Position numbers and translations under genes: made by a program. Below are positions 3,972 to 57,505 of a stretch of DNA of 64,000 nucleotides, one piece after another. The stretch spans positions 4,999 through 68,998 of the forward strand of contig JAAWNY010000001.1 in NCBI GenBank assembly GCA_022799175.1, read 5' to 3'. The notes under the pieces were generated by a model that saw only the letters and a program-made list of their open reading frames with translations, was not told where the DNA came from and made no database searches. Source of the stretch: Lachnospiraceae bacterium. Lineage in GTDB: Bacteria > Bacillota > Clostridia > Lachnospirales > Lachnospiraceae. Position 1 is the stretch's first letter, and the number at the start of each line of letters is the position of its first letter.

Positions 3972-5399
3972 ATGGATAAATTTTACCATTCAGTGCGTTT
4001 GGATTCGGAATTGTGCAAAGGATGTATTAACTGTATCAAACGCTGTCCGACTCAGGCCATCCGGGTCAGGAATGGAAAGGCACAGATTAATGGCAAATTC
4101 TGCATTGACTGTGGAGAGTGCATCCGGGTCTGTCCGCACCATGCCAAACATGCCACTTACGATAAGATGGATGTGATGAAGCAGTATCGTTATACGGTGG
4201 CGTTGCCAGCGCCGGCACTGTACAGTCAGTTCAACAATTTGGATGATGTAAATATTGTGTTGAATGCATTGCTTTTGATGGGATTTAATGATGTGTTTGA
4301 GGTCAGTGCAGCAGCAGAACTGGTATCAGAGGCTACACGAGAGTATCTGAACCATCATGAGGATAATCTGCCGATCATCAGTACCGCATGTCCGTCTGTG
4401 GTGCGTCTGATTCGAGTGCGTTTTCCGAATTTGATCTCTCATTTATTGCCACTGAATCCACCGGTGGAGGTGGCGGCGTCTTTGGCGGCGCAGCGTGCCA
4501 TGCAAAAAACAGGACTGGAACGACAGGAGATAGGGATCTGCTTTATCTCGCCATGTCCGTCAAAGGTCACATATTCCAAATCTCCTTTGGGAACGGAGAA
4601 AAGCCAGGTAGATCATGTGCTTGCCATCAAGGATGTATATCCGCAGCTGATTTCTCATATGAAAGCAGTGGGAGAGGAAGCTTGGGATCTGGCAACTTCC
4701 GGGAAGATCGGTATCAGCTGGGGTCGAAGTGGTGGCGAGGCTAGTGGATTGTTTACAGAGAGCTATCTGGCAGCAGATGGTATTGAAAATGTGATCCGGG
4801 TATTGGAAGATCTGGAAGATCAGAAGTTTACCAATTTGAAATTTGTGGAGTTGAATGCCTGCAACGGCGGCTGCGTAGGGGGAATTTTAAATGTAGAGAA
4901 CCCTTATGTAGCGGAGGTGAAGCTGAAACGACTCCGCAAATATATGCCAGTGGCCAGGAGCCATATGGATATGGAAGACCACGTGGAGGAGATGATTCCC
5001 TGGACGACAGGAGTGCAATATGAGCCAGTATTCAGTCTGGGCGGCAACATAATGGAAAGCTTTGCTCGCTTAAATCAGGTAGAACGGCTTTGTAAGAAGC
5101 TGCCAGGTCTGGACTGTGGTTCTTGTGGAGCGCCTACTTGTAAGGCATTGGCGGAAGATATTGTGCGGGGGCAGGCTAGTGAAAATGACTGTGTCTATTA
5201 TCTGAGGGAGAATTTGCATAAATTGTCAGAAGAGGTTTCCGTATTGGCAGATGATTTGCATGGGGGAGATAAAGGCGGACAGGAGACGTTGCGGATTTTG
5301 AAAGAGTATATTCAGCGGATCTCGGATGAGATGTCGCTTCTGGATAATCGGGATGCCGAAGAGGAAACAGGAAAGCATAATAATAGTGGAGGATTGTGA
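3972..5399 (+). CDS. HydS-like (group D-type) [FeFe]-hydrogenase homologue / Fe-S sensor
   Basis: Two CxxCxxCxxxCP ferredoxin motifs; H-cluster-like motifs TACP, SPCPSK and ELNACNGGCVGG; C-terminal CGSCGAPTC...C Fe-S domain. Confidence 0.82.
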   Translation: MDKFYHSVRLDSELCKGCINCIKRCPTQAIRVRNGKAQINGKFCIDCGECIRVCPHHAKHATYDKMDVMKQYRYTVALPAPALYSQFNNLDDVNIVLNALLLMGFNDVFEVSAAAELVSEATREYLNHHEDNLPIISTACPSVVRLIRVRFPNLISHLLPLNPPVEVAASLAAQRAMQKTGLERQEIGICFISPCPSKVTYSKSPLGTEKSQVDHVLAIKDVYPQLISHMKAVGEEAWDLATSGKIGISWGRSGGEASGLFTESYLAADGIENVIRVLEDLEDQKFTNLKFVELNACNGGCVGGILNVENPYVAEVKLKRLRKYMPVARSHMDMEDHVEEMIPWTTGVQYEPVFSLGGNIMESFARLNQVERLCKKLPGLDCGSCGAPTCKALAEDIVRGQASENDCVYYLRENLHKLSEEVSVLADDLHGGDKGGQETLRILKEYIQRISDEMSLLDNRDAEEETGKHNNSGGL

Positions 5400-50157: not shown

Positions 50158-51462
50158 ATGCAGCCGTATGCAGAGATGAGTACTGAGGAATTGCACGCGT
50201 TAAAGAAACAGTTATCCGTTCGCTACCGGGATTTTCAGGGAAAAGATTTGCGACTTGATATGTCCAGGGGAAAGCCCAGTGTGGATCAACTAGATCTTTC
50301 CATGGGGATGATGGATGTTTTGAGCAGTGATGATGATTTGACTTGTGATGATGGTACCGATTGCCGGAACTACGGTGTTCTGACAGGTATCGGGGAGGCG
50401 AAGGAATTGATCGGGGATATGATGGAGGTATCCCCGGACAATATTATAATATATGGAAACTCCAGTCTGAATGTGATGTTTGATACGGTGTCCCGTTCCA
50501 TGACCCATGGCGTGATGGGATGTACACCCTGGTGTAAGCTGGATCAGGTGAAGTTCTTATGTCCGGTGCCGGGATATGACCGCCATTTTGCCATCACAGA
50601 ATATTTTGGCATTGAAATGATCAGCGTACCTTTAACTGGAGAAGGCCCCGATATGGATATCGTGGAAAAATTGGTAGCTGAGGATGACAGCATTAAAGGA
50701 ATCTGGTGCGTACCGAAGTATTCGAATCCTACAGGCAACAGCTACTCCGATGTGACAGTCCGCCGTTTTGCCCGTTTAAAGCCGGCGGCACCGGATTTCA
50801 GAATCTACTGGGATAATGCATATGGAATTCATCACCTGTACGACTATGATCAGGATCATCTGATTGAGATTTTGGCCGAGTGTAAACGGGCCGGCAATCC
50901 GGATCTGGTATATAAGTTTTCATCCACTTCGAAAATCAGCTTTCCTGGTTCTGGTATCGCGGCCATTGCCACATCCCGCAACAATCTGGAGGATATCGAG
51001 AAGCAGCTGAAATTCCAGACGATTGGCCATGATAAGGTAAATCAGCTGCGTCATGTCCGCTTTTTTGGCGGTATTCATGGTATGGTAGAGCACATGCGGC
51101 TACATGCAGATATTATGCGTCCAAAGTTTGAAGCAGTAACCAGTACTTTGGAGAGAGAACTGGATGGTTTGGGGATTGCCAGCTGGACAAGTCCGAAAGG
51201 CGGTTATTTTATCTCTTTTGATGCCATGGAGGGCTGCGCAAAGGAGATTGTGGCACGTTGTAAAAAAGCAGGTTTGATCATGACGGGGGCTGGCGCTACT
51301 TACCCATATGGAAAGGACCCTCATGACAGTAATATCCGGATTGCTCCGTCTTACCCGCCTCTTGAGGATCTGATTTTAGCCATGGAACTTTTTGCCCTTT
51401 GTGTCAAGATTGTCAGTATCAATAAAATTTTGGCTGACAGAAAAGCAAAGGGAGAGATTTAA
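50158..51462 (+). CDS. PLP-dependent aminotransferase (class I/II fold, aspartate aminotransferase-like)
   Basis: LDMSRGKP, VPKYSNPTG, YWDNAY, STSKISF and IRIAPSYP motifs; promoter TTGTAA-17-TAGAAT at 50087-50115. Confidence 0.88.
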   Translation: MQPYAEMSTEELHALKKQLSVRYRDFQGKDLRLDMSRGKPSVDQLDLSMGMMDVLSSDDDLTCDDGTDCRNYGVLTGIGEAKELIGDMMEVSPDNIIIYGNSSLNVMFDTVSRSMTHGVMGCTPWCKLDQVKFLCPVPGYDRHFAITEYFGIEMISVPLTGEGPDMDIVEKLVAEDDSIKGIWCVPKYSNPTGNSYSDVTVRRFARLKPAAPDFRIYWDNAYGIHHLYDYDQDHLIEILAECKRAGNPDLVYKFSSTSKISFPGSGIAAIATSRNNLEDIEKQLKFQTIGHDKVNQLRHVRFFGGIHGMVEHMRLHADIMRPKFEAVTSTLERELDGLGIASWTSPKGGYFISFDAMEGCAKEIVARCKKAGLIMTGAGATYPYGKDPHDSNIRIAPSYPPLEDLILAMELFALCVKIVSINKILADRKAKGEI

Positions 51463-51485
51463 ATTCCCATTTTTGCCTATTTTTT

Positions 51486-51653
51486 GAGGTGTTATAAAAT
51501 AAGTCGTCAGCCATTTCCCTATCTTGTGTTGGCACAATTCACGTACCCTGTCGGATATTAATGGATAAAGTCCACCAATATCCGACAGGGTATTCGTGAA
51601 CAGCTGGACATGAGATACGTGAAATGGCTGATGGCTTATTTTGCAAGACCTCC
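51486..51653 (+). ncRNA. 168-nt rod-shaped palindromic element (candidate structured RNA or repeat element)
   Basis: About 38-bp outer stem, internal loop, 22-bp inner stem; G-U pairs favour the plus strand. Confidence 0.5.
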
Positions 51654-51715
51654 TCTTTACTTTTTTTTATTCCTGCCCTATAATACAATAGACTGTGCAA
51701 AGGAGAAGCTCTGAA

Positions 51716-52144
51716 ATGAAGCAATTAGGGAATCAGTGGAAAGCAAAGCTGATCAATTATGAAACGATTTCTTATTTAATTTTTGGCGTGTTGACGACGT
51801 TGACCGATTGGATTAGCTATGGAGTCATGACCCGCTACGGGAATGTGGATTATCGGGTTGCTACGGCAGGAGCATGGGCGGCGGCAGTACTGTTTGCCTT
51901 TGTAACGAACAAGCTGTTTGTATTTCAAAGCCGGAACTTCAGTCTCGGAAAGGTATGGGAAGAATGGATACCATTTGTGACCTGCCGGGTAGCCACAGGT
52001 CTGTTTACTTTGGCGGCTATGATGGCGATGGTAGATGGAATCGGTATTCAGCAAGATCTTATCTGCAAAGTGGTGGTGTCGGGAATTTCCCTGGTGATGA
52101 ATTATGTTTTAAGTAAATGGTTTGTGTTCAGAAAGGCATCGTAA
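51716..52144 (+). CDS. GtrA family flippase-like membrane protein
   Basis: YLIFGVLTT, FAFVTNKLFVF and NYVLSKWFVF motifs; promoter TTTACT-17-TATAAT at 51656-51684. Confidence 0.9.
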   Translation: MKQLGNQWKAKLINYETISYLIFGVLTTLTDWISYGVMTRYGNVDYRVATAGAWAAAVLFAFVTNKLFVFQSRNFSLGKVWEEWIPFVTCRVATGLFTLAAMMAMVDGIGIQQDLICKVVVSGISLVMNYVLSKWFVFRKAS

Positions 52145-52193
52145 GGCAACAGGGGGAGTAAAACGGTTATGGGAAAAGCAGGGAGAAACCAGA

Positions 52194-54980
52194 ATGGCAT
52201 ATGAGGATATATACCGTATTACGAAAGAGCTAGAGGATTTACTTATGATAGATAAAGAGAGAATATTAACGTGGGAAGAAGAACAGCCGGATTCGATGGA
52301 CAGGCAGAATGAAATTTGCCTGGAGGAGGAGACGACTGTCCGAGAACAGGATATCGCACAAGAAGAAGAGGAGACGACTGTAGAAAATGAGAATGAAGTG
52401 ACAATATCCGGAAAACATCATTTTGAGATGGGGGGAGGGGCCTGGAGCCTGATACGTCCCAATGACGGATGGATCGTTGCTTTTGTGGTGCCGATGGTGA
52501 TTCTGCTGATTATTTTTGCGCAGCGGGGAATCTATCCCTTTGGTGAGGAGTCTTTTCTGCGTACGGATATGTATCATCAATATGCACCTTTTTTTTCGGA
52601 ATTTCGTAATAAGCTGGCTCATGGAGAAAGCCTGCTTTATAGCTGGAATGTTGGGATGGGCATTAATTTCTCTGCTTTATATGCCTATTATCTGGCAAGT
52701 CCGCTCAACGGTTTGCTGTTTTTTTGTCCGGAAAAATATGTGATCGAATTTATGACCTACATGATTGTTTTAAAGACGGGACTTTGTGGGCTTTCTATGG
52801 CCTATTATCTGAGAAAGCATTGTAAAAGCGAAAATTTGGGAATTGGATTTTTTGGGATTTTTTATGCTTTGTCTGGATATATGGCAGCATATAGCTGGAA
52901 TATCATGTGGTTGGATTGCATTATTTTGTTCCCGCTGATTATGTTGGGCCTGGAGCGGTTGGTGCAGGATGGGAAGGGACTTTTGTATTGCTTGACTTTG
53001 GGAATATCGATTTTTTCTAACTACTATATCTCCCTTATGACCTGTATTTTTATGGTGCTGTATTTTGTAGCATTATTGATCTTAGAGAGACGGATGACAT
53101 GGGAAAAATTTGTCAGCCGGTGTGCCGCTTTTGCCTTTTATTCGTTGGTGGCCGGAGGACTGGCCGCCGTTGTTCTTTTGCCAGAGATTTATGCTCTGAT
53201 GATGACAGCATCAGGAAAATTTAATTTTCCCAAATTGCAGGAACCTTATTTTCCGATTTTTGATATGCTGGCCCGTCATATTGGCAATGTGGAATCTGAG
53301 ATTGGTTTGGATCACTGGCCGAACATTTATTGTGGAGTGGCGGTGTTGATGTTTTTGCCTCTGTATTGGATATCGAAGAAAATATCTGGCAGAGAGAAAG
53401 TAGTATACAGTGTATTGTTGCTGTTTTTCCTGGCTAGTTTTTCCATTAATGTGCTGAATTTTATCTGGCATGGATTTCATTTTCCCAATAGTTTACCCTG
53501 CCGGCAGTCGTATATCTATATTTTTCTGGTGTTGGTGATGTGCTGTAAGGCATATCTCCAGCTGTCGGAAATTTCCTGGAAGCATGTGCTTTTGACATTC
53601 TGGGGAGCAGTAGGATTTGTGTTGATGGCTCAAAAGCTAGTGACAGAAGAACATTTTCACTTTTCTGTATTTTATGTGGCAATTTTGTTTTTAGCCTTGT
53701 ATTTGTGGATTTTATGGTTGCATAAGCAAAGACCTCGTTTCCGGAACCGGGCGATTTTGCTAGCGCTGGTATTGGTGGCAATGGAATCGTCAGTCAATAT
53801 GACAGTGACTAGTGTGACTACTACTAGCCGTACTGCATATGTCAAAGACAATGAGTCCGTAAAAAAATTAGTGAATTCTGTTCTGCCGTCCGATACCTTC
53901 TTTCGGATGGAGAAAGTGACAAGAAAGACGAAAAATGATGGCGCTTGGATGAATTTTCCGTCAGTGTCTTTGTTCTCTTCTACAGCAAATGCAGATTTAA
54001 CGAAATTGTTTAAAAAATTGGGTTGTGAGAGTTCCACAAATGCTTATAGTATTACTGGAAGTACACCATTGATTGATATGTTGTTTGCGGTCCGTTATGG
54101 TATTTATTCGGAAGAACCGGTAGATACCGGAATGCGGGATTTTGTGGCGTGCGAGGATGATACGGTTTTGTATCGCAATAACTATACGCTGCCATTGGGG
54201 TTTATGGTAGAAGCAGATTTTGAGCAGTACTGGGATCGGGAGGCGGGAAATCCTGCCGCTGTACAGAATAATCTTGCCGGAAGTGTCGGGGCAGATCCAG
54301 TACTGATCCTGGAGACGGATATTTCTTCTTCCGGAGAGGGACTGACCTTTTGTCCCAAGGAGGGTGGCGAGTATTATGTTTATGTGAACAATACTTCCAT
54401 TGAAAAGGTAACAGCAGAGACCTGGAGAGGGACGAAAACCTATAATAATGTCAATCGAGGATATCTGTTGGAGCTGGGATATTGTACTGCTGAAGATATG
54501 GTTACTTTGAAGACAGAAGATGCTTCGGATGGAGTGTGGGCAGAGGTATATCGATTTTCGGAGACAGGGCTGGCTCAGATCTATGAACGACTTTCGGAAG
54601 AACCCTGGAAACTGACAAGCTGGCAGGAAACACGACTAGAAGGGATCATATCAGCGGAGGAAGGGGGAGTGATGATTACCACAATCCCTTACGATGAGGG
54701 ATGGACCATTCTGGTAGATGGGGAAGAGCAGCAGAAGGAAAAGGTGTTGGATGCTTTTATTGGCGTGTCTGTGACGCCGGGGACTCATAAGATTTCCATG
54801 AGGTATCGTCCGGAGGGCCTGGTAAAAGGAGGTCTGATCACTGCCGGATGTGTAGTGCTTTTGTTGGCAGTGGAATATGCTTGTCAGTTCTGGCGTCGGA
54901 GGAAGTGGGAGGAAGAAGTATGGGGAGAGGAAATACCGGAAGAAGAAATATGGGAAGAGGAAATACCAAAACAAGAATAA
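52194..54980 (+). CDS. YfhO family polytopic GT-C glycosyltransferase
   Basis: [32 protein letters not shown] and IPYDEGW motifs. Confidence 0.88.
54906..54980 (+). repeat. Five in-frame 15-bp tandem units at the yfhO 3' end
   Basis: tgggaggaagaagta / tggggagaggaaata / ccggaagaagaaata / tgggaagaggaaata / ccaaaacaagaataa, encoding [24 protein letters not shown]. Confidence 0.75.
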
Positions 54981-57207: not shown

Positions 57208-57406
57208 ATATGACCATGATTGTCATTGAAATAGCAAAGAGGGTATCGCAAAATTAATGTTATTTAGATTATGTAGTGACAAAGGGTACGCCAAAGAAAA
57301 GGGGCAAGAAGCAGCAAGAAATCGTTGGTTCCTTTTTCCGATTTCTTGCTATTTCTCACCCCTCTTCTTTGTCTGTGTTTCTCGTTTTCTTATCTAAATG
57401 ATGTTG

Positions 57407-57484
57407 ATCGCAAAATAAGCCATTCGCCATTTCCCGTATTTCAAGCCCGGAATACAGAAAATGGCGAATGGCTTATTTTGCGAT
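57407..57484. repeat. 78-nt palindrome related to the 51486-51653 element
   Basis: Perfect 26-bp inverted repeat ATCGCAAAATAAGCCATTCGCCATTT; 28 of 32 nt identical to the other element's arm. Confidence 0.8.
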
Positions 57485-57505
57485 ATTTTTTGCAGTTATA
57501 TTGTG

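Follow-up and report, generated by a model that had tools for sequence, protein, structure and literature searches.

Between an aminotransferase gene and gtrA, the DNA analysed here (64,000 nt of contig JAAWNY010000001.1 from a Lachnospiraceae bacterium; hereafter the window) contains a 168-nt stretch with a rod-like fold, for which the initial annotation had considered a 6S-like RNA, a new non-coding RNA or a MITE/REP-like unit. What this stretch is, and what it does behind the aminotransferase gene, is the question addressed below.

A long hairpin behind the aminotransferase gene

The upstream gene (plus strand, 50158-51462) belongs to the aspartate-aminotransferase family (PF12897), with 23 nt separating its stop codon from the element; downstream, gtrA (PF04138; plus strand, 51716-52144) has its own promoter. 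The sequence originally quoted at 51486-51653 was correct and formed a single long, almost continuous hairpin. The plus strand of the 168-nt element folded at -96.8 kcal/mol with 71 pairs and the minus strand at -88.1 kcal/mol with 68 pairs, of which 7 and 5, respectively, were G:U in the minimum-free-energy folds, so that the earlier G:U count of four against one was wrong. The hairpin at 51486-51653 is real and far beyond chance: the z values were -14.8 (plus) and -14.9 (minus), and none of 200 dinucleotide shuffles matched the fold energy of either strand. Of the internal features described, the perfect inner stem of 16 bp (51544-51559 paired with 51577-51592) and the small hairpin at the apex were both present, and the supposed bubble of 12-13 nt shrank to a modest asymmetric internal-loop region around 51531-51537/51597-51606.

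As for known RNAs, cmscan returned no match to the 6S model RF00013 in 51000-52200 at E up to 10 and none at the gathering level window-wide, and a search of all Rfam families to the same E limit gave nothing but a meaningless 27-bit match to a plant miRNA. The TwoAYGGAY motif (RF01731) was also considered; ACGGAC and ATGGAT do occur at the apex, but within a stem, and no model match was obtained at E up to 10.

Members of a dispersed family

The main omission of the initial annotation was to treat the element as a single locus, for it belongs to a dispersed family, here designated family A. BLAST and profile searches of its own genome (2.97 Mb, 122 contigs, 91% complete) recovered about 50 related loci, 62-75% identical to the copy at 51486-51652 and each a strong hairpin. 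Nine were long forms of 146-170 nt, alignable over the full length and sharing the same asymmetric internal features; about 40 were short forms of 65-100 nt lacking the apex; and a few minimal hairpins of ordinary terminator size (e.g. C56:2071, C38:76559 and C43:17924) kept the termini only. The extent of the whole palindromic element in the window (51486-51652) was delimited by its folds, by its homology to the 8 other long and about 40 short forms of the same genome, and by the covarying structural alignment described below. All copy numbers from draft assemblies are lower bounds, and an assembly artefact is excluded for the family A loci because independent assemblies carry the same copy. 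The window holds a second copy, a short form at 57239-57485, whose left terminus (57239-57254) is split from the remainder (57407-57485) by an insertion of an unrelated palindrome, family B; same-species contigs lacking this insertion carry the family A copy intact.

The copies showed a marked preference for gene ends. A gene 3' end was faced by 48 of the 50 copies, at a median distance of 22.5 nt past the stop codon and within 50 nt in 42 cases; these contexts were assigned with a crude longest-ORF caller, and the ORFs behind the two seemingly "divergent" cases are doubtful. Spacers between convergent genes accommodated 28 of the 48 copies, as against 337 of the 2545 spacers genome-wide (13%; odds ratio 9.2, Fisher p = 6e-13). 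The same gene-end preference was found for the copies of a sister species, G010 (the closest relative), in which the small sample of tandem contexts revealed no bias in orientation, three elements being co-oriented with the gene and three opposite to it.

Anatomy of the family A unit

The family A unit (about 171 nt) reads, from the outside in, (A-run) GAGGGTGTTGC, AAAATAAG, a GC-rich box of 9-10 bp, CATTTCTCTATCCTGTGTTCGGACGGTTCACGTACAC and the apical hairpin, and its second half mirrors this order and closes with CTTATTTT, GCAACACCCTC and a T-run. These boundaries are fixed, because the flanks of near-identical young G010 copies diverge exactly outside GAGGGTGTTGC...GCAACACCCTC. The terminal inverted repeats are GAGGGTGTTGCAAAATAAG/CTTATTTTGCAACACCCTC in young copies and GAGGTGTTAT/GCAAGACCTC in the copy studied here, in which the left repeat (plus strand, 51486-51495; family consensus GAGGGTGTTGC) pairs with the right one (plus strand, 51643-51652). 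The TATAAA-type sequence TGTTATAAA that had been pointed out at 51490-51498 is indeed there, but it is a variant of this terminal repeat, with the consensus GTGTTGCAAAAT.

Next to the left repeat lies the A-tract AAAATAA (plus strand, 51496-51502), a U-tract on the minus strand, where columns 18-25 are nearly invariant in an alignment of 18 long copies. It is followed by the left GC box GTCGTCAGCC (plus strand, 51503-51512), a hypervariable but compensated stem segment of which columns 26-34 pair with columns 155-163. The apical module, composed of the 16-bp perfect stem and the small apical hairpin (51544-51592), is absent from the short forms. On the descending side, the right GC box GGCTGATGGC (plus strand, 51626-51635) constitutes the stem arm directly 5' of the U-tract TTATTTT (plus strand, 51636-51642), which is nearly invariant in the family and, following a GC-rich stem as it does, would be a candidate termination point for aminotransferase transcripts. 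A duplex is accordingly succeeded by a U-rich tract twice, namely GGCTGATGGC by TTATTTTG and the outer stem by CTCTTTACTTTTTTTT. Every copy presents, on both strands, the order A-tract, GC-rich stem, interior, GC-rich stem and U-tract (TTATTTT), which is how a two-way intrinsic terminator is built.

Removal of the centre of the long form, with the ends joined at the 6-nt direct repeat TGTTCG, gives the short form, as seen in the G010 copy L213. Long palindromes typically suffer central deletion, and such loss of the centre would yield the short and minimal forms, which would grade into terminators of ordinary size. The apical module was also considered as an independent smaller element, and it was found inside family A copies only. 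Extra apical palindromic material was observed in copies of 195-245 nt (L194, L057, L085 and others in other species), L194 carrying an apex extension GGACATTGCC...GGCAATGTTC with a T-rich loop. The apex is a site of gain as well as of loss.

Replacement of resident terminators

The aminotransferase gene is conserved across the genus, which allowed its downstream spacer to be compared between species. In four congeners (G007, G015, G016 and G018) the element is absent, and the sequence after the stop codon forms an ordinary small terminator hairpin, for instance GAGCCGGAAC-AATAG-GTTCCGGCTC in G007, which abuts a conserved CTCTTTACTTTTT leading into the gtrA promoter TTTACT-17-TATAAT. The genome studied here keeps CTCTTTACTTTTTTTT and the gtrA promoter (51653-51684) and has the 168-nt palindrome in the place of the small hairpin, with no other hairpin left between the aminotransferase stop codon and that promoter. 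The retained flank comprises the T-rich tract CTCTTTACTTTTTTTTAT (plus strand, 51653-51670), an ancestral sequence found in the orthologous spacers of the same four congeners and of G010, and a promoter-like site for gtrA (plus strand, 51656-51684; 10 of 12 positions matching) conserved in congeners; terminator and promoter overlap, since the T-tract of the upstream terminator contains the -35 element of gtrA. The polarity is clear, the small hairpin being ancestral and the element derived.

Nine same-species contigs were found (GCA_949502285.1 and eight metagenome contigs), all of which reach into the aminotransferase-gtrA spacer. The element was complete, with 0-2 SNPs inside, in the six that span the spacer, the other three stopping inside or just before it, and no empty allele of the 51486-51652 site occurred among these contigs. 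As a separate observation, the G010 spacer (L148) lacks the element, has a different strong terminator further upstream, and reads GCGGACACT just before the conserved CTCTTTAC; the former resembles the right end of family A and may be a remnant.

When the flanks of G010 copies were mapped onto the genome studied here, four further swapped sites emerged, at which an element in G010 corresponds to an ordinary terminator in our genome (L182/C56:21940, L184/C56:31634, L206/C93:46408 and L213/C122:3090), with conserved flanks and T-tract. No flanking duplication was present at the five filled-versus-unfilled orthologous sites. Judged from these comparisons, family A evidently lands on resident Rho-independent terminators close behind stop codons and replaces their stem-loops. 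Three copies (C9:41283, C59:15242 and C46:74983) are common to both species and are therefore old. In G010, a complete newer element (L188; C33, about 4085-4247) was found at the exact dyad centre of the older copy orthologous to C59:15242, replacing its apex, and L181 and L178 are likewise nested at the symmetry axis of minimal copies.

Mobility and distribution

In G010, at least 125 matches to the arm were obtained with at most one mismatch, as against none with a reversed-pattern control. One arm variant, AAATAAGTCACCCGTCATTT, the mark of a near-identical subfamily, recurs many times in this genome and ends at least nine contigs, a sign of a recent burst. Family A evidently is or was mobile; no target-site duplication was found at at least 13 complete young G010 copies.

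The exact arm pattern occurred in one of 24 sampled congeners, in none of 16 other families and in none of 400 further genomes of the same family (399 from other genera and one more congener), counts in which diverged relatives would be missed because the pattern was exact. Among named genomes, true copies were found in five records only: the Lachnospiraceae MAGs MGBC164298 (G010) and ABMPRH_275_0, Bacterium 1XD21-13, Clostridia bacterium MGBC000113 and an uncultured Lachnoclostridium bin, several of which include the 195-245-nt units with extra apical material. Family A thus far appears confined to a few closely related mouse-gut Lachnospiraceae, and plasmid and phage collections gave no match to it.

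A mobilising partner was sought as well. The 91%-complete genome gave no match to a RAYT/Y1 transposase (Y1_Tnp, PF01797); in the same assembly, no pair of inverted termini lay 0.7-6 kb apart except for one 4.6-kb span between a truncated end and a small copy, and no repeat of at least 350 nt at 90% identity or more was present, MAG assemblies often dropping IS copies. The sequence TGTTGCAAA is presumably reminiscent of IS6-family ends, and no 8-bp duplication is present.

Of the readings put forward in the initial annotation, 6S was not supported and the MITE/REP-like alternative was, the element being multi-copy, lineage-restricted, polymorphic between species and bounded by terminal inverted repeats. 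We regard it as an undescribed SPRITE/REP-like mobile palindrome, one that probably serves as a terminator.

Family B and the 6S locus

The palindrome that splits the second family A copy, family B, is 152 nt long (57255-57406), unrelated to family A, and inserted into the left terminus of that copy, where it is flanked by the 10-bp direct repeat ATCGCAAAAT (57245-57254 and 57407-57416). The insertion was found in seven of nine other same-species contigs, and an exact empty site, 162 nt shorter, in GCA_949502285.1 and GCA_965646465.1; given the 10-bp duplication and these exact empty sites, family B is a classical MITE, polymorphic within the species. It amounts to about 136 loci on 81 of the 122 contigs, of which 71 touch contig ends, and thus it fragments the assembly. 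Its long form of about 310 nt is a near-perfect palindrome (reference copy L231:1524-1832), and a 360-nt stretch that contains it folds at -192 kcal/mol. At four further orthologous terminator sites, family B is present in the genome studied here and family A in G010.

Canonical 6S RNA (59-75 bits) was detected in all 12 same-genus genomes sampled. In G010 it lies at C74:5758-5937 (L231:1959-2138; 59 bits), with a copy of family B about 130 nt away. It was not found in our 91%-complete assembly, from which it is missing because the whole orthologous locus with its flanks is unassembled.

Covariation and signs of selection on RNA

Covariation, named in the initial annotation as a possible check, was assessed in a structural alignment of 18 long copies, drawn from the genome studied here and from G010, and compensated pairing was present, mostly in the GC box. 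The alignment yielded 48 consensus pairs, and 95% of their cells were paired, a proportion that fell to 37-49% when the 3' partners were slid as a control. Both-sided changes were seen in 18 of the 48 pairs (shuffled mean 8.8) and in 43 cells (15.8 in shuffles), and for neither measure was a value as high reached in 500 shuffles. The double changes clustered in the GC box that adjoins the U-tract, with up to 5-6 pair types per position, as exemplified by column pair 29/160 (AU:9 CG:4 GU:2 GC:1 UA:1 UG:1); the A-tract and the U-tract were the most invariant columns. Over 34 nt, the two arms were 83% identical within a copy and 73% between copies, and compensation is therefore real but local, partly reflecting subfamilies. 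The possibility that the GC box is copied from the target or its flank was also considered, and no match to the replaced terminator stems was found.

Complementary changes at both termini were also encountered in near-identical young G010 copies, namely GAGGGAG/CTCCCTC in L208 and GAAGGTG/CACCTTC in L209. Independent mutation is an unlikely source of such double changes, which favour some templated symmetrisation and are compatible with a terminator role.

The suggestion of selection at the RNA level, originally drawn from the mistaken G:U count, is weakly supported by better sense-strand folds and a G:U excess. In 15 of 20 co-directional contexts, the better fold was that of the sense strand (mean -7.9 kcal/mol, Wilcoxon p = 0.009), and G:U pairs numbered 92 in the sense and 53 in the antisense folds; this excess could be mimicked by strand-biased mutation, most genes sharing the direction of replication, and it depends on a crude ORF caller. 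A strand-specific RNA is disfavoured by two findings: a conserved U:G pair (A:C on the other strand) and a small asymmetric internal loop were kept in both orientations, and the few informative G010 contexts showed no orientation bias (3 versus 3), so that inheritance rather than selection in RNA accounts for these asymmetries.

Proposed role of the element and its rivals

The 168-nt hairpin is a long-form copy of family A, an undescribed dispersed palindromic family, and we consider it probable that it serves as the terminator of the aminotransferase gene. In the mechanism that we propose, the copy at 51486-51652 would act both as terminator and as protective 3' hairpin of the aminotransferase transcript. 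On transcription of either strand, the 5' arm, the interior and then the 3' arm would be made, and when the polymerase reaches UUAUUUU, the GC-rich box would just have closed a stable hairpin directly upstream; this would be the geometry of a Rho-independent terminator, which the upstream A-tract would render two-way. A second U-rich tract, CUCUUUACUUUUUUUU, follows the outer stem, and release would take place upstream of the gtrA promoter. Such a terminator would account for the position at gene ends, the excess between convergent genes, the invariant tracts beside a GC box that is free to vary yet remains paired, and the loss of the resident hairpins.

A simple terminator scan called no terminator-like site in 51300-51800, because the stem and loop of the element exceed the limits of the scan: the canonical size (stem of 5-20 bp, loop of 3-8 nt) is surpassed by a stem of about 70 pairs. 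A stem of about 70 bp is far longer than known terminators need.

Gene-end enrichment could by itself stem from insertions being tolerated at such sites, an argument made for pneumococcal repeats (PMC3049150). The rival that survives best here follows Croucher et al., who argued likewise for those repeats (PMC3049150), and takes the element as palindromic DNA, selfish or neutral, that plays no part as RNA and is tolerated after genes, the arms of which are kept complementary by a DNA-level process, such as template switching in quasi-palindromes or fold-back copying in the course of transposition. We judge this rather unlikely, though by a good measure the most credible of the rivals. It agrees with the unbiased orientation of the elements relative to genes, with the U:G pair and asymmetric loop inherited in both orientations, and with the double changes of L208 and L209, which are hard to obtain via independent mutation; against this stand the five orthologous sites at which the resident hairpin has disappeared, leaving the element as the sole hairpin ahead of the retained T-tract. 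Something must terminate at these five swapped sites. Nor would neutrality lead one to expect that conservation or compensation should be strongest in the A-tract/GC stem/U-tract layout, or that the sense strand should fold better in 15 of 20 cases.

An improbable further reading, though one compatible with the observations, is that the element tunes mRNA half-life from the 3' UTR, besides or instead of terminating, either as an RNase III substrate or as a block to 3' exonucleases. The conserved U-tract and the replacement of terminators would be left unexplained by it, even though a near-perfect duplex of more than 60 bp would be an ideal RNase III substrate, the copies are positioned in 3' UTRs, and precedents exist in Correia elements with RNase III and ERIC with RNase E (PMC10969869) and in REP sequences with mRNA stability (PMC3184786).

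Least credible of all, and very improbable, is a stand-alone small-RNA gene, coding either for a 6S-like RNA that binds RNA polymerase or for a hairpin RNA that starts from TTGCCT-16-TAAAAT (51473-51500) and stops at the U-tract. In its favour, the size of about 150-170 nt, the rod-like fold, a promoter-like match (9 of 12 positions) reading into the element and the missing 6S gene of the assembly might be adduced, but it is contradicted by the want of any 6S or other Rfam match at E up to 10, by some 50 copies in either orientation, by the absence of the element from the aminotransferase-gtrA spacers of congeners, by the canonical 6S in 12 of 12 congeners, by a -35 that lies in non-repeat flank, is no family feature and has matches as frequent in shuffles, and by an internal loop of about 4 unpaired bases on each side in place of a large open-promoter-like bubble.

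Returning to the terminator reading, we tentatively entertain, as a possibility with the odds against it, that family A is a self-propagating terminator cassette, which overwrites resident terminator stem-loops rather than inserting beside them. A mechanism aimed at hairpins or their dyad centre, such as a hairpin-tip-specific recombinase, repair of a cleaved tip, or template switching between hairpins flanked by A-tract and T-tract, would leave no target-site duplication and would regenerate both arms from one template, whereby the complementary double changes in near-identical young copies would be explained. The nesting at the dyad centre and the occurrence of family B at the same sites would fit the view of terminators as a general landing pad and as a route of terminator turnover.

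For annotation, these results remove a false 6S/ncRNA candidate and define family A by its consensus, boundaries, forms and distribution, a family that fragments assemblies of mouse-gut Lachnospiraceae. The orthologous sites offer polarised examples, unusually clean ones, of a mobile palindrome that has usurped the position of a terminator hairpin, with the U-tract and the next promoter retained, and they bear on the origin and turnover of intrinsic terminators as well as on the domestication of "junk" palindromes. Behaviour that lacks target-site duplication and is centred on the symmetry axis points to a poorly understood route of mobilisation, and a MITE with a 10-bp duplication is found in the same window.

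Comparison with known systems

Family A shares its length and rod shape with 6S RNA (RF00013; about 170-190 nt), from which it differs in having no model match and no large central bubble, and in being multi-copy without fixed orientation. Bidirectional intrinsic terminators likewise show an A-tract, GC stem and U-tract on both strands, 10-50 nt after stop codons and often between convergent genes, whereas the stem of family A is some 5-10 times longer, its "loop" is a conserved hairpin, and it is a genome-wide repeat.

Among mobile repeats, the Correia/NEMIS, ERIC, RUP, BOX and bcr1 MITEs resemble it in their size of 100-200 nt, terminal inverted repeats and whole-length RNA fold, the compensatory changes of bcr1 and the effects of MITEs on co-transcribed mRNAs being further traits in common; classical MITEs, however, have target-site duplications and IS-like termini, whereas family A had no duplication at at least 13 young copies or at five site pairs. 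REP and REPIN sequences, associated with RAYT (Y1 transposases), are also extragenic palindromes with many copies, a convergent bias, no target-site duplication and co-varying arms. Yet REPs are GC-rich units of 20-40 nt, REPINs are doublets of these, and both are found mostly in Proteobacteria, whereas family A is a single hairpin of 65-170 nt with AT-rich conserved tracts and no RAYT was found in its own genome.

Closest among the described repeats is SPRITE of S. pneumoniae (PMC3049150, PMC10969869). SPRITE, a small non-coding interspersed repeat, comprises 30 terminator-like copies that are strongly enriched near gene 3' ends, 15 of them lying between convergent genes (p = 1.7e-9); it is restricted to the species and its nearest relative, has no established target-site duplication or partner IS, and has been proposed to be co-opted as a terminator (PMC3049150). 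Family A likewise combines a duplex and U-rich tract with enrichment at gene 3' ends and between convergent genes. SPRITE has AAAA/TTTT ends, an 18-bp duplex, a long loose U-rich tail and 28% GC (PMC3049150); this published description does not fit family A, the two differ in order and consensus, and no sequence relationship is expected. Unlike SPRITE, family A is a symmetric unit, a terminator by layout on both strands, in which pairing extends along all of its 65-170 nt; it possesses terminal repeats of 11-19 nt and occurs in nested long, short and minimal forms. Replacement of resident terminators at orthologous sites is seen for family A. Family A constitutes an undescribed family of a known kind, set apart by its full pairing, nested forms, compensated GC box and occupancy of terminator sites.
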